Under the pieces are notes generated by a model. That model had not been told where the DNA came from. It worked only from the letters and a program-made list of their open reading frames with translations, and did no database searches. The position numbers were made by a program, and so were the translations under genes. Below, in pieces: positions 32,113 to 36,862 of a DNA stretch of 40,520 nt (position 1 is its first letter; each line of letters starts with the position of its first letter). Source of the stretch: Minisyncoccota bacterium (GTDB lineage: Bacteria; Patescibacteriota; Minisyncoccia; Phycocordibacterales; GWA1-40-21); NCBI GenBank assembly GCA_041663045.1, contig JBAZRH010000002.1, forward strand, positions 73,179 through 113,698, written 5' to 3'.

Positions 32113-32358
32113 ATGGATGTAAACAATACAAATAAAAATGGTTCGGGGGCGATAATAGGAGCTATAATCGTGATCGTTGTCCTTATCGCTGGGGGGTTCT
32201 ACTTCTACACCCAGAGAATAAACAAGCAGAGACAATTTGAAGCGATGAAAAATACGGTTACGCAATCTACTTCTGTAACAAAGGATATAGATTCTTTACT
32301 CATCGAGGCCTCGTCGACAGATCTAAATAATCTAGGCGATGGAATAGAAAATCTATAA
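32113..32358 (+). CDS. Small single-TM hypothetical protein
   Basis: GAIIGAIIVIVVLIAGGFYFY TM followed by a polar tail. Confidence 0.7.
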   Translation: MDVNNTNKNGSGAIIGAIIVIVVLIAGGFYFYTQRINKQRQFEAMKNTVTQSTSVTKDIDSLLIEASSTDLNNLGDGIENL

Positions 32359-32551
32359 AAGCTCGCTCGTATCACCATTTTTCATCAGTGTGCCTTCACC
32401 CCAAAGAAAATCATAGTCGCTGTTCTATACGAAAAATCAAGAACTCGCTGTATCAGAATACAGCTCAAACAACTTGATTTTTCTAAACAGCTCCTTGATT
32501 TTACTTGGGGTTCTCGGCAATGATGAAAAATGGTGATATTCGCTCGCTTAC
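32355..32551. repeat. Repeat family B, copy 1 (197 bp, nested hairpin, 18-bp terminal inverted repeat)
   Basis: About 95% identical (10 mismatches) to 33767-33963; arms tatcaccatttttcatca / tgatgaaaaatggtgata; ATCAGAAT apex at 32452-32459. Confidence 0.9.
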
Positions 32552-33766: not shown

Positions 33767-33963
33767 ATAAAAGCTCCCTCATATCACCATTTTTCATCAG
33801 TGTGCCTTCACCCCAAAGAAAATCATAGTCGCTGTTCTATACGAAAAATCAAGAACTCGCCACATCAGAATGTGTCTCAAACAACTTGATTTTTCTAAAC
33901 AGCTCTTTGATTTTACTTGGGGTTCTCGGCAATGATGAAAAATGGTGATATTCGCTCGCTTAC
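33767..33963. repeat. Repeat family B, copy 2
   Basis: Direct repeat of 32355-32551 at offset 1412; apical stem altered by three compensatory pair changes. Confidence 0.9.
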
Positions 33964-33976
33964 GGCAGAAATTTCC

Positions 33977-34009
33977 GTCTTTGCGAGTTAATCCGAAGCA
34001 ATCCAGTCT
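33977..34009 (+). repeat. REP-like element (GTC..TTGCG...GCAATCCAG type), left DGR border
   Basis: gtctttgcgagttaatccgaagcaatccagtct, directly adjacent to the RT stop. Confidence 0.5.
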
Positions 34010-35058
34010 CAATCCCCCAGTATTTTATCTATCTGCCTTTTTATCCCCTCTCCATTACAATACTTAAGCATACCCAAATAAGATTGGACGGCCTGTTTAA
34101 AATACTTTTCATCAACCAAACCTTTATCAAAATCCTCCTTTAATTTAACTAGCTTATTCAAAACCCTTTTCTTCGTCTTCGTCCTCAAAACCCTATAATG
34201 CGGAAGAGAAACATACCCTAGAAAATCCGTCCCTGAGATAATCTTACGCAAACTTATTTTTCTAGGATGTAGCTCTACCAAGAGTTTTTCTCTGAAAAAA
34301 TCTTGTATTCCTACAAGGCAACTTTTCAAAAACTCAAGATTATCAGCTAAAATAACAAAATCATCGCAATATCTAATATAATATCTGGCCTTAAGTCTAT
34401 GTTTTATAAACTGATCTAATTCGTTTAGATAGATATTTGAAAAAAGCTGGCTTGTAACATTACCAAGTGGCAAACCTTTGCCTTTTTCCTTTTCAAAAGA
34501 GCCGACAATCTTCTGAATTAAGTTCAATAAATCTCTATCCCCCACTTTTTTGCATATCAAATCCAGAAGTATTTTGTGGTCTATATTGTCAAAAAATTTT
34601 CTTATATCGCATTTCAATACATATCCGCTTCTCGTATAATTCCCAGAAACTTTCCTCGCAAACTCCTCAAATCTTTTAACCCCCGCATGCGTTCCCTTCA
34701 TCTCTCGTGAAGAATATGAATCAAAAATAAAAATAGGATTGAAAATCTGATATAATGCCTGATGCACGGCTTGATATAAAACCATATCCCTTATATCCGC
34801 CTTGTGTATTTCGCGAAGTTTTGGATCGCAAACTTTGAAAGCAAAGTATGGTCTGGGCTTCCACTGAAAAGTGGACAGCTCGCTATGCAAAGAAAAAATA
34901 TTTTCTTCAAGATTCAATTCAAAATCAGCCACTTCTTTTTTTGACCTTTTGCCCTTAGAAAACTTCCGCCAAGCCTTTAATAAATTTTTAATAGATATTA
35001 CATCACAAAAACTACAACTATGACGCCCCCCCCCCGCACGTGTTCGCAAAACTCCCAT
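34009..35058 (-). CDS. DGR reverse transcriptase
   Basis: ISIKNLLKAW..F.KGKR, CDIRKFFDNIDH, GLPLGNVTSQLFSNIYLNELD (GxxxSQ), YIRYCDDFVI, DFLGY; no endonuclease or maturase tail. Confidence 0.93.
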   Translation of the reverse strand: MGVLRTRAGGGRHSCSFCDVISIKNLLKAWRKFSKGKRSKKEVADFELNLEENIFSLHSELSTFQWKPRPYFAFKVCDPKLREIHKADIRDMVLYQAVHQALYQIFNPIFIFDSYSSREMKGTHAGVKRFEEFARKVSGNYTRSGYVLKCDIRKFFDNIDHKILLDLICKKVGDRDLLNLIQKIVGSFEKEKGKGLPLGNVTSQLFSNIYLNELDQFIKHRLKARYYIRYCDDFVILADNLEFLKSCLVGIQDFFREKLLVELHPRKISLRKIISGTDFLGYVSLPHYRVLRTKTKKRVLNKLVKLKEDFDKGLVDEKYFKQAVQSYLGMLKYCNGEGIKRQIDKILGD

Positions 35059-35392
35059 TATTCATAATATAAGAATACTACACAAAGATTTATATGTCTT
35101 TGGCCAAAAGCTCTCAAAAAGAGATAAACTTGGTATTCACGCAATCATTGAAAGAGTTTGTATGGATATTTTATCGTTATCCATAGAATCAGCTTATAAA
35201 AAAGAAGCTTTGAAAATACCTCCATTGGTATTACTTAGGATAAAAGTCGGTCTCCTGCAAAATCTTATACGAACAGAAAATGAGCTTAAAATTTTGGATG
35301 ACGAGACATATTTGCGATTTTCTGCGCAAATAGTGGAAATATCAAAAATGGCTAGTGGGTGGATAAACTATATGAACGCAAAACCTGCCTAA
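35020..35392 (+). pseudogene. avd: Avd-like four-helix-bundle accessory protein, frameshifted in a C10 run as assembled
   Basis: The frame upstream of ATG 35162 is open back to 35024 (VRKTPIIHNIRILHKDLYVFGQKLSKRDKLGIHAIIERVCMDILSL...LLQNLIR...EISKMASGWINY), an Avd-like pattern. ATG 35020 joins this frame only if the C run (35026-35035) is 9 or 12 long. Confidence 0.75.
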
Positions 35393-35405
35393 GGCAGGTT
35401 TTGCG
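35377..35405. other. 13-bp perfect hairpin just 3' of the TR; the avd stop codon is its loop
   Basis: cgcaaaacctgcc-taa-ggcaggttttgcg. Confidence 0.75.
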
Positions 35406-35408
35406 AGA

Positions 35409-35523
35409 AATTTCCTCACGCGCACCCATGTTGTCGTTCTCGTAGTCGGCGTTGTTCCAGTTGAACCTGACATTGCGATTGTTCGGGTTCCAGTTGCCGT
35501 AAGCCACCTTGCCGTCCGAAAGG
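35409..35523 (-). ncRNA. DGR template repeat (TR)
   Basis: 115-bp match to 35776-35890 with 14 mismatches, 13 at TR adenines (minus strand); 10 AAY codons in the VR frame; 34 adenines by my count. Confidence 0.93.
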
Positions 35524-35697
35524 GTATTTTGATATTTTCCGTCCGTATCACCGAAAGTCTTTTACAAGACCTTCTGAGTTTTCCCGCGGTAGAGCGAGCA
35601 TAGTATAAAAAATATCAAGCAATTTCTTTTTGTTGGCAAACCGTCATCTCTGTTTTAACAAAGCCGGCTTAACAGCCATTTTTATTATATAAAAAAA

Positions 35698-35731
35698 CCG
35701 GCACAAAGCAACTTTCATTGCTTTGTGCCGG
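35698..35731 (-). terminator. 14-bp hairpin downstream of the VR: terminator and/or DGR homing cruciform
   Basis: ccggcacaaagcaa-ctttca-ttgctttgtgccgg, followed by a T7 run on the minus strand, about 44 nt past the VR end. Confidence 0.75.
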
Positions 35732-35754
35732 AGTAAGGGTGAAGGGAGAGAGAA

Positions 35755-36507
35755 TTAAGGTTTAAGGGGAACCTCAATTGCCTCACGCGCACCCATGCCG
35801 TCGATCTCGCCGCCGGCGTTGATCCAGTGGAACCTGACATTGCGATCGGACGGGTTCCAGTAGCCGTAAGCCACCTCGCCGTCCGAAAGGCGTTCCGTCG
35901 GGAACCATGTCCAAGTCTCCGGATCAAGGTACTGATTCGTGGCTTCGTAGTATTGTCCGAATGCCAGAGCGTATACCTTGAGGGGAAGCCAGAGACGACC
36001 GGTTTTCACCAGAGTGTTTGGTGACTTGCCCATTGTATTCTTCGTTGGACGCGGATTGCGTTCAATGAGGAACAGTCTGGGTTTGTCGGAAGCTTCGTGA
36101 TATTTATACTTATTCACGTCCACTTCTTCGTACGCCTTGGACAGACCGTATTTCTGCAGGCTGTTCACGGCTTGACGGTTGTCCACGCCGGATGGTTGGA
36201 GAATCGCGATGACTTCCTTCCACGGCAGGACTTCCGGCAAAGCAAACATCTCTGCGATATTCGCTTTGTAGCCGAAGAGCTTATCTGCTTGGTGTTCGGC
36301 GAGACCGATGGCGAAGGAGAGGTTGTTGCCGACCGCGACTTGTGTCGCAATATCAACAAACTTCCCTTCAATCGCCAACTGAAGATGCTTACTAAGCATC
36401 TCCGGATCATACGGATACCCGCCCCGTTGAAGATACAGTTGACGCTGAATCTCCGCGAACTGGTTTCCGAGCTTGACCGACATTTCGCCTGTGACAATTG
36501 TTGCCAT
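35755..36507 (-). CDS. DGR target protein with a C-terminal variable region (likely CLec-type fold), no signal peptide
   Basis: The C-terminus LSDGEVAYGYWNPSDRNVRFHWINAGGEIDGMGAREA is encoded by the VR; AAGGA upstream of the ATG. Confidence 0.88.
   Translation of the reverse strand: MATIVTGEMSVKLGNQFAEIQRQLYLQRGGYPYDPEMLSKHLQLAIEGKFVDIATQVAVGNNLSFAIGLAEHQADKLFGYKANIAEMFALPEVLPWKEVIAILQPSGVDNRQAVNSLQKYGLSKAYEEVDVNKYKYHEASDKPRLFLIERNPRPTKNTMGKSPNTLVKTGRLWLPLKVYALAFGQYYEATNQYLDPETWTWFPTERLSDGEVAYGYWNPSDRNVRFHWINAGGEIDGMGAREAIEVPLKP
35776..35890 (-). repeat. DGR variable repeat (VR) ending in a GC-rich GGGTGCGCGTGAGG element
   Basis: Direct alignment with the TR at offset 367. Confidence 0.93.
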
Positions 36508-36560: not shown

Positions 36561-36619
36561 TTTGCCACAGAGGAAAATTTTGAGTTTTGATTCTTTTCAA
36601 AATTTTCCTCTGTGGCAAA
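36561..36619. promoter_or_regulatory. 23-bp perfect inverted repeat in the predicted 5' UTR of the DGR target
   Basis: tttgccacagaggaaaattttga-N13-tcaaaattttcctctgtggcaaa. Confidence 0.6.
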
Positions 36620-36680: not shown

Positions 36681-36709
36681 ATTATACACCCTTTGAGTCT
36701 TTATGTCAA
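36681..36709 (-). promoter_or_regulatory. Consensus sigma70 promoter for the DGR target
   Basis: Minus strand TTGACA-taaagactcaaagggtg (17 nt)-TATAAT. Confidence 0.85.
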
Positions 36710-36793
36710 GCTGAAATAGGCGTTTTTGATAAAATACGGCTAATTTGCTAGGTTTTATACTTTTGCGAAGTAACATAAAGTGGCCCGTAAATA

Positions 36794-36823
36794 AGACTGG
36801 ATCCCCGCATCCGCGAGGATGAC
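36794..36823 (-). repeat. REP-like element (GTCATCC.CGCG...GGGGATCCAG type), right DGR border
   Basis: Minus strand gtcatcctcgcggatgcggggatccagtct. Confidence 0.55.
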
Positions 36824-36827
36824 AGAC

Positions 36828-36862
36828 AGAGGCGGGGTTTGCCGAAGGCAAACCCCGCCTCT
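36828..36862. terminator. Terminator after polA, c-GAA-g triloop
   Basis: agaggcggggtttgcc-gaa-ggcaaaccccgcctct. Confidence 0.75.

Follow-up and report, generated by a model that had tools for sequence, protein, structure and literature searches.

A chromosomal DGR in a Minisyncoccota bacterium with a frame-setting C/G homopolymer in its overlapping avd and reverse transcriptase genes

We identified a chromosomal CPR DGR in the window analysed here (40,520 nucleotides of contig JBAZRH010000002.1, from the Minisyncoccota bacterium assembly GCA_041663045.1), with the layout target/variable repeat (VR), template repeat (TR), inverted avd and reverse transcriptase (RT), traces of past adenine-specific homing and, probably, no activity in the C10 genotype as assembled; we give this reading a probability of roughly 80%. 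The DGR call is supported because every component of a DGR can be found and chance falls far short of explaining the adenine bias, and the element is probably switched off at present because a C/G run of ten bases puts avd out of frame.

Read along the minus strand, the cassette consists of the target gene with its VR, a terminator hairpin, the TR and the RT gene, with avd inverted between TR and RT. Its location between polA and tig, in a 724-kb genome that is 97.5% complete, is in keeping with its first description as chromosomal, and the same gene order and orientation recur in 10 relatives found via target or DNA searches (the avd/RT arrangement is as here in approximately 50 of the 88 loci with an RT match). 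When the TR and a target profile were searched against the whole 724-kb genome, a check that the original prediction had proposed, one TR and one VR were recovered and no remote VRs. A second DGR-type RT, clearly degraded, is encoded elsewhere in the genome. Two readings of the locus were considered and rejected: that it is a compositional chimera produced by recent transfer, because target/TR and RT/avd differ in GC throughout the clade; and that it is bracketed by inverted repeats, because its flanks share only a 9-nt inverted match, which is at chance level.

Both proteins of the presumed mutagenesis machinery were assignable from sequence profiles. The RT (349 aa; 34009..35058, minus strand) matched RVT_1 (E = 3.5e-20) and PHROG 1423 'Reverse transcriptase' (E = 1.3e-104), and its closest solved structure was 8ub7_A (E = 4e-40), which we take to be bRT, the RT of Bordetella phage BPP-1; group II intron RTs were matched at 2e-18. 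Its LGNVTSQ and YCDD motifs, invariant in an alignment of 8 RTs, have the [I/L/V]GxxxSQ and YxDD forms of the DGR clade, in agreement with the earlier assignment of this gene as a DGR-type RT, and its identification as a group II intron, retron or DRT enzyme was rejected because the NCBIfam models for these fell far below their cut-offs. The avd gene (accessory variability determinant; 35020..35392, plus strand, with the Avd body at 35036-35392) is inverted relative to TR and RT; its body is open for 118 codons and has full-length profile homology, matching NCBIfam DivGenRetAVD (1e-8, profile positions 2-103) and the PHROG 'Avd protein of DGR' (4.7e-12).

The VR (35776..35890, minus strand; target codons 207-244 of 250) and the TR (35409..35523, minus strand; 11 AAY codons) form a 115-nt direct repeat with 88% identity, ungapped on the minus strand at an offset of 367. 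The initial count of 13 of 14 mismatches at TR adenines was reproduced (35 adenines among the 117 bases tested; hypergeometric P ~4e-7), as was the preponderance of AAC/AAT codons, which hold 9 of the 13 adenine changes; all adenine changes in the VR are at codon positions 1 or 2, and the sole non-adenine mismatch is a T>G (TR 35444 / VR 35811). Across 45 related loci, 758 of 836 TR/VR mismatches (91%) are likewise at TR adenines, and in the family, codons with A at position 1 or 2 have a column entropy of 2.09 bits, against 0.75 elsewhere (P = 1.4e-6). The adenine-specific TR/VR differences show that mutagenic homing took place in the past. One of the 13 adenine changes, the 3'-most A>C (35413/35780, GAA>GCA), marks the boundary (IMH versus IMH*) and is not fresh mutagenesis; at least 17 related loci have this same difference between TR and VR as a fixed one. 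The 3' end of the VR carries a G+C-rich, IMH-like GGGTGCGCGTGAGG block (35781..35794, minus strand) that is identical in the TR, after which the two repeats diverge, with a fixed C in the VR and A in the TR at 35780.

In metagenome data, a Logan contig of the source run spans VR and TR unbranched at ~25x depth, and no VR variants were present in Logan contigs from the four runs found, such contigs being prone to drop rare variants. A second metagenome (X2) contains a 151-nt unitig that is identical over 13 of the 14 variable positions; X2 yielded two perfect 151-nt pieces, both from the target gene, with nothing else matching over 20 kb of the window, and a claim of VR stability across samples was rejected on evidence this thin. 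A search for RNA runs found none.

The TR-(avd)-RT core found here, in which avd runs opposite to its neighbours, is that of architecture B3, which makes up 90% of a CPR set (Wu et al. 2017, PMC5758913); CPR DGR RTs are placed in RT clade 2 by Roux et al. 2021 (PMC8144416), and CPR DGR targets are typically without TM or signal segments or other known domains (PMC8144416, PMC5758913). Because the B3 layout and a signal-less target have already been reported for CPR, the element belongs to a known kind, and the original statement that DGRs are common in CPR agrees with both studies. With CPR B3 DGRs it shares the inversion of avd, one neighbouring target whose VR is at the 3' end, the lack of TM or known domains in that target, occasional non-adenine substitutions and a groundwater CPR host. 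Nothing essential differs, although we did not find a homopolymer in the avd/RT overlap in their descriptions; apart from this avd-frameshifting run, the element is an ordinary CPR DGR of established type.

The cassette also carries a series of putative transcription signals. A consensus sigma-70-type promoter (TTGACA-17-TATAAT, 12/12; 36681..36709, minus strand) lies ~175 nt upstream of the target gene, and the target 5' UTR contains a perfect 19-bp palindrome (36561..36619), a candidate operator or repeat element. The palindrome attracted spurious, symmetric Rfam miRNA matches on both strands, and the Rfam search gave nothing above noise. The hairpin that had been noticed downstream of the VR proved to have a 15-bp stem followed by T7 (35691..35731, minus strand; stem 35731..35698), a structure typical of intrinsic terminators and assigned here to the target gene; it begins 46 nt past the end of the VR/TR homology, and its distance from the VR varies from 16 to 100 nt in relatives. 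Just beyond it, a TATAAT box (35689..35684) and a conserved TGGCTGTTAAGCCG motif (together 35665..35689, minus strand), present in many related loci, may represent the TR RNA's own promoter and 5' end, and a 13-bp hairpin (CGCAAAACCTGCC/GGCAGGTTTTGCG; 35376..35406, minus strand) directly follows the TR and overlaps the avd stop codon. Post-TR hairpins of differing sequence occur in 42 of 45 related loci, counted locus by locus in place of covariation statistics because the MAFFT alignment left their arms unaligned. From these signals we infer that the TR is its own transcription unit.

By analogy with BPP-1, the TR would be transcribed, probably as its own short RNA running from the -10 box just past the target terminator to the hairpin behind the TR; RT and Avd would copy this RNA to cDNA, misreading adenines; and the cDNA would replace the VR, changing up to ~20 codons in the last beta-strands of the 250-aa target. 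Like the BPP-1 element (mtd-avd-TR-brt), the cassette has adenine-specific TR-to-VR transfer, an Avd helper, a G+C-rich block at the VR 3' end and a hairpin downstream of the VR. Unlike BPP-1's phage-borne element, it is cellular, its avd is inverted between TR and RT, its hairpin, ~46 nt beyond the VR, has the T tail of a terminator and is not a precisely placed cruciform of the BPP-1 type, its TR apparently has its own promoter and terminal hairpin, and its target is no tail fibre, with the C-type lectin fold matched weakly.

The target protein (250 aa; 35755..36507, minus strand) was modelled with confidence (pLDDT 84, core above 90), as the original prediction had suggested doing; in the models, residues 85-250 fold into a compact alpha/beta domain, preceded by helices of low confidence at the N-terminus (residues 1-80). 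Three Foldseek searches with the models returned mostly C-type lectin domains and Mtd, none of them significant (E 0.1 or more, TM 0.37 or less), and the predicted fold is weakly C-type-lectin-like. No match to the target was found in Pfam or NCBIfam (E up to 1, including any FGE-sulfatase or DUF1566-type family), PHROGs or PADLOC, and a profile search of PDB sequences found nothing. Its supposed lack of a signal peptide or TM was borne out by hydropathy (maximum Kyte-Doolittle 19-residue mean of 1.11), and inspection of the sequence revealed no basic plus hydrophobic N-terminal segment and no cysteines; 'cytoplasmic-looking' accordingly holds in the sense of a hydropathy test, with no detectable export or membrane segment. 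The N-terminal module has no other copy within its own genome, and some target homologues occur without the cassette altogether (for example, at locus L003).

It is quite possible, if on balance doubtful, that the target is not cytoplasmic and instead reaches the surface via an unrecognized route (for example, with its N-terminal helical module docked on an exported partner), there binding ligands from host cells or phages, a role that has been proposed for the DGR targets of CPR. Consistent with such a route, the N-terminal ~55 residues are a swappable module that also occurs on proteins with unrelated C-termini (P0012, P0013 and P0015), members of the target family have differing N-termini attached to the same core, and the true non-membrane status of CPR targets is left open by Roux et al. 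(PMC8144416). However, the protein has neither a hydrophobic segment nor a signal-like N-terminus, no secretion genes adjoin the cassette, and DGR targets located in the cytoplasm have been documented from other bacteria (PMC10907252). Among the latter, the DGR targets of Thiohalocapsa PB-PSB1 are predicted to be cytoplasmic and carry STAND NTPase, kinase or other conflict-system domains, with RTs of clade 5 (PMC10907252); the target here shares the predicted location, but is a bare 250-aa protein associated with a different RT lineage.

Where the 5' ends of the avd and RT coding sequences overlap lies a homopolymer of ten bases (C10 on the plus strand, G10 on the minus; 35026..35035). At this length the RT is open and the avd ATG (35020) is offset by one base from the reading frame of the Avd body, which has no ATG, GTG or TTG start before residue 47; C9 or C12 would leave both avd and RT open, and C8 or C11 neither. 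With the avd start out of frame and no VR variation in the contigs available, the original prediction's caveat on current activity carries weight. A G run of at least 7 occupies the same spot in 60 of 77 related loci, compared with 3 such runs elsewhere in 367 kb, and the longest G run measures 6-12 in 62 of the 77, most commonly 10 (21 loci) or 9 (17 loci). All three frame states occur in relatives, including loci with avd in frame (L006, L040, L050 and L055), and the commonest is an avd ATG with one base too many, as here (13 of 19 relatives with an ATG close to the tract, and ~21 of 36 scorable loci as read by eye from a listing and not from a computed tally). None of the 60 relatives was a near-identical genome suited to comparing tract lengths (closest DNA match, 73%).

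At slightly less than even odds, we propose that this hypermutable run in the first codons of avd and RT gates targeted hypermutation stochastically, among three states (both genes on, RT alone on, neither on), whereby most cells of the lineage would be DGR-silent and rare slippage variants would diversify a soluble, possibly intracellular, binding protein. Two marks of a contingency locus are present, namely a coding-region homopolymer that sets the frame and a tract length that differs between related loci. A hint of reversible length change within one population is that the source-run contigs end at the run. As in the poly-G/C contingency loci of Campylobacter, Neisseria and Haemophilus, a G/C run of 7-12 bases sits just past the start codon; in contrast to them, a single run here lies in two divergent overlapping genes, with three states as a result, it would gate a mutagenesis machine and not a surface antigen, and its switching within a population is putative. 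We found no paper describing a homopolymer in the avd/RT overlap or such a gate on a DGR.

The over-long C run might instead be a programmed recoding site, with the DGR active as it is and Avd made at a set low level from C10 by +1 ribosomal frameshifting at the proline codons after the start or by RNA-polymerase slippage, but we consider this unlikely. The avd ATG is off by one in those 13 of 19 relatives despite differing spacers and tract lengths, and the ~21 of 36 loci scored by eye with the same offset compare with the roughly equal thirds expected of a random switch; moreover, CCC-C beside a start codon is a known +1-prone context. A programmed shift and a switch that is mostly off account equally well for the 13/19 pattern. 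Against recoding, tract lengths range from 6 to 12 with all three frame states represented, in-frame loci included, and a run of 9-10 bases far exceeds what a ribosomal shift site needs; furthermore, because the same run sets the RT frame, many loci would require two distinct recoding events. Against the reading of an idle element, Avd might still be made from C10, via +1 frameshifting on CCC CCC CCC C, transcriptional slippage or a non-canonical start (ATT at 35057/35060).

Very improbable, in our judgement, is that C10 is an assembly or sequencing error and the true genome has C9, with an intact, constitutively expressed, ordinary DGR. Homopolymers are error-prone, two related MAGs bear MFD... 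names (presumably long-read assemblies) and the tract is the exact point at which source-run Logan contigs end; yet both contigs, products of an independent short-word assembly, carry all ten tract bases at their ends, identical to the window, and many independent metagenome contigs, drawn from different projects, show the same off-by-one state. There is similarly little chance that the cassette is a decaying fossil, with avd a true pseudogene and the VR no longer changing: the out-of-frame avd ATG, the single non-adenine T>G, the degraded second RT and the loss of the cassette in some target homologues would fit, but the RT retains its full length and catalytic motifs, the Avd body has an open frame and full-length profile matches, neither the TR hairpin nor the target promoter is damaged, changing one base restores both genes and the tract is conserved across the clade.

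As a DGR, this element adds little to what is known, CPR DGRs with the same layout and signal-less targets having been catalogued by the hundred. As a clean, complete, single-target DGR on a near-complete 724-kb genome, it is a convenient candidate for reconstitution, because the target has a consensus promoter, the TR apparently forms a separate transcription unit and a confident model of the target domain is available. If the homopolymer tract is a real switch, it would explain how the cell limits the cost of a mutagenic retroelement, and surveys of DGR 'activity' in metagenomes should then genotype the tract first.

Within the cassette at 34009-36507, the TR (35523..35409, minus strand) and the VR, which forms the last 38 codons of the target ORF (35890..35776, minus strand), align over 115 nt in ungapped register (offset 367) and differ at 14 positions, 13 of them TR adenines as originally predicted (hypergeometric P ~4 × 10−7), the remaining one being a T>G. 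All 13 adenine changes fall at codon positions 1 or 2, and the predicted predominance of AAC/AAT also held (9 of the 13 in AAY codons). Among the 45 related loci in which TR and VR could be paired, 758 of 836 mismatches (91%) lie at TR adenines. The 3'-most A>C (GAA in the TR, GCA in the VR) recurs, fixed and identical, in at least 17 related loci and is a homing-boundary mark, not the product of recent mutagenesis. The remaining T>G lies within a TAC codon where one relative, locus L008, has AAT when compared by eye, which suggests that the TR may have acquired a point change later.

The RT (35058..34009, minus strand) was confirmed as DGR-type: it matches RVT_1, scores far under the group II intron, retron and DRT model cut-offs, matches PHROG 1423 at 1 × 10−104, and carries LGNVTSQ and YCDD motifs that are invariant among eight relatives. 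Its closest solved structure is 8ub7_A (4 × 10−40), which we take to be the Bordetella phage bRT and whose match surpasses those of group II intron RTs by twenty orders of magnitude. Outside the window, the source genome also contains the remnant of a second DGR-type RT (L101; G000:C2:8523-8858); it is 39% identical to the window RT, lacks residues 198-242, where the SQ motif and YCDD lie, and has no avd or target beside it. The source genome (723,844 bases in 2 contigs, completeness 97.5%) was also searched for remote VRs, as the original prediction had proposed, and no VR besides that of the target was found.

The cassette is flanked by polA and, at its opposite end, by tig, nusA and tsaE. 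A sigma-70-type promoter (36709..36681, minus strand; 12/12 consensus) precedes the 250-aa target ORF (36507..35755, minus strand), and a perfect palindrome of 19 bp around a 13-nt loop (36561-36619), which may be an operator or a hairpin element that inserted there, stands between this promoter and the target start codon. A GC-rich REP-like hairpin (36790-36830) adjoins the polA terminator; its source-run depth is approximately tenfold in excess, and it is present in three other metagenomes too. The trigger-factor gene is flanked by a 197-nt direct repeat (32355-32551 and 33767-33963, 95% identical) whose depth in the source metagenome (~175, versus 25-31 for neighbouring DNA) indicates a member of a multicopy element family. 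G+C content is ~51-53% in the target and TR and ~35-37% in the RT and avd, both here and in 45 related loci; because this contrast holds clade-wide, a recent chimera was rejected as its source and it is instead a property of the cassette.

The predicted hairpin downstream of the VR is present (15 bp with a T7 tail; 35731..35691, minus strand), but it is a terminator and not a fixed-distance cruciform: all 45 loci have a stem of 8 bp or more after the VR, and in 34 of them a T-run follows this stem, 16-100 nt away from where homology ends. After the TR there is a 13-bp hairpin (35406..35376, minus strand), and 42 of 45 loci have a stem of 8 bp or more there, with unrelated sequences and a median start 6 nt past the TR (in a control with the stricter requirement of a T-run behind the stem, 8% of randomly chosen RT-coding segments qualify). 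The target terminator is immediately followed by a TATAAT box and by a conserved TGGCTGTTAAGCCG motif (35689..35665, minus strand); both recur in equivalent places in relatives as TATAAT plus TGGCT(R)WTAA, and they probably serve a separate TR RNA as its promoter and 5' end. Together, the recurrence of the post-TR stem, post-VR terminator and TATAAT/motif pair suggests that the TR is transcribed separately, as a short RNA.

The avd (ATG at 35020, body to 35392), the sole cassette part on the plus strand, overlaps the 5' end of the oppositely oriented RT across a C10/G10 run (35026-35035). Its frame, read stop to stop (35024-35392), matches NCBIfam DivGenRetAVD over profile positions 2-103, as well as Pfam bAvd and the PHROG 'Avd protein of DGR'. 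In silico, a run of C9 or C12 gives an Avd of 123 aa from ATG 35020 and an RT from ATG 35065, the observed C10 gives an avd product of 15 aa and an RT from ATG 35058, and C8 or C11 leaves neither open. A run of 7 or more Gs occurs at the avd/RT overlap in 60 of 77 non-identical related loci, most commonly of length 10 (21 loci) or 9 (17 loci), with 3 such runs in 367 kb elsewhere in those loci; of the 19 loci whose ATG lies near the run, 2 have it in frame, 13 have it off by one base and 4 by two. The run may be a phase switch or a site of programmed +1 shift or slippage; a sequencing error in the C10 length is also possible, if less likely. Source-run contigs end exactly at both edges of the run. 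No description of a homopolymer run in the avd/RT overlap was found in the literature searched.

Because the avd is out of frame, current activity of this DGR is doubtful. Data on VR variation came from Logan contigs of four runs: one 1800-nt contig from the source run spans TR and VR with no alternative at the contig level, and a landfill metagenome contains two 151-nt pieces that match the target perfectly and cover 13 of the 14 variable positions, together with nothing else from 20 kb of the window, which makes the latter weak evidence.

The target was predicted to lack a signal peptide or TM, and its hydropathy profile agrees (maximum 19-residue hydropathy of 1.11, no hydrophobic stretch, no signal-like N-terminus); it also has zero cysteines. 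Fold modelling, likewise proposed originally, gave a confident AlphaFold model for residues 60-250 (pLDDT >90 in the full model, 84 in a core-only model), with uncertain N-terminal helices. Foldseek searches of the models against PDB and BFVD returned no significant match (E ≥0.1, TM ≤0.37); the non-significant matches were mostly C-type lectin domains and Mtd variants, so that the modelled fold is CLec-like at best. Residues 1-55 (36343-36507) form an N-terminal helical module (MATIVTGE...RQLYLQRGGYPYDP...AIEGKF) also found on three proteins (P0012, P0013 and P0015) with unrelated C-terminal parts, with no further copy elsewhere in the source genome. Two close target homologues (L003:6001-6747 and L005:5901-6695, 63-73% identical) adjoin a pseudouridine synthase gene; TR, avd and RT are all absent within 6 kb of the former, the contig of the latter stops just past the target gene, and both are either orphans or served remotely.

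All related loci come from Patescibacteria/CPR MAGs. The order target, TR, inverted avd, RT was found at 10 loci through target-based and DNA look-ups, and avd lies beside the RT on the opposite strand at ~50 of 88 loci that have an RT match. This arrangement is architecture B3, to which 90% of Wu et al.'s CPR set belongs (PMC5758913). CPR (clade 2) DGR targets are typically devoid of TM and other conserved domains (Roux et al., PMC8144416, who do not settle whether they are truly non-membrane proteins), and cytoplasmic DGR targets are documented in other bacteria too (PMC10907252). The prediction of a chromosomal DGR with a cytoplasmic-looking target is thus correct and of an already known kind: the cassette is a real DGR and an ordinary CPR-type member, for which an export-signal-free target is usual. 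The target family comprises 701 representative clusters at E ≤1 × 10−3. The eleven AAY codons alone allow, by arithmetic, ~15^11 possible variants. In the family alignment, column variability is 2.09 bits where the encoding TR codon has A in its first or second position versus 0.75 elsewhere (P = 1.4 × 10−6), and the far greater variability of the former columns shows that the family has been diversified where the mechanism predicts.
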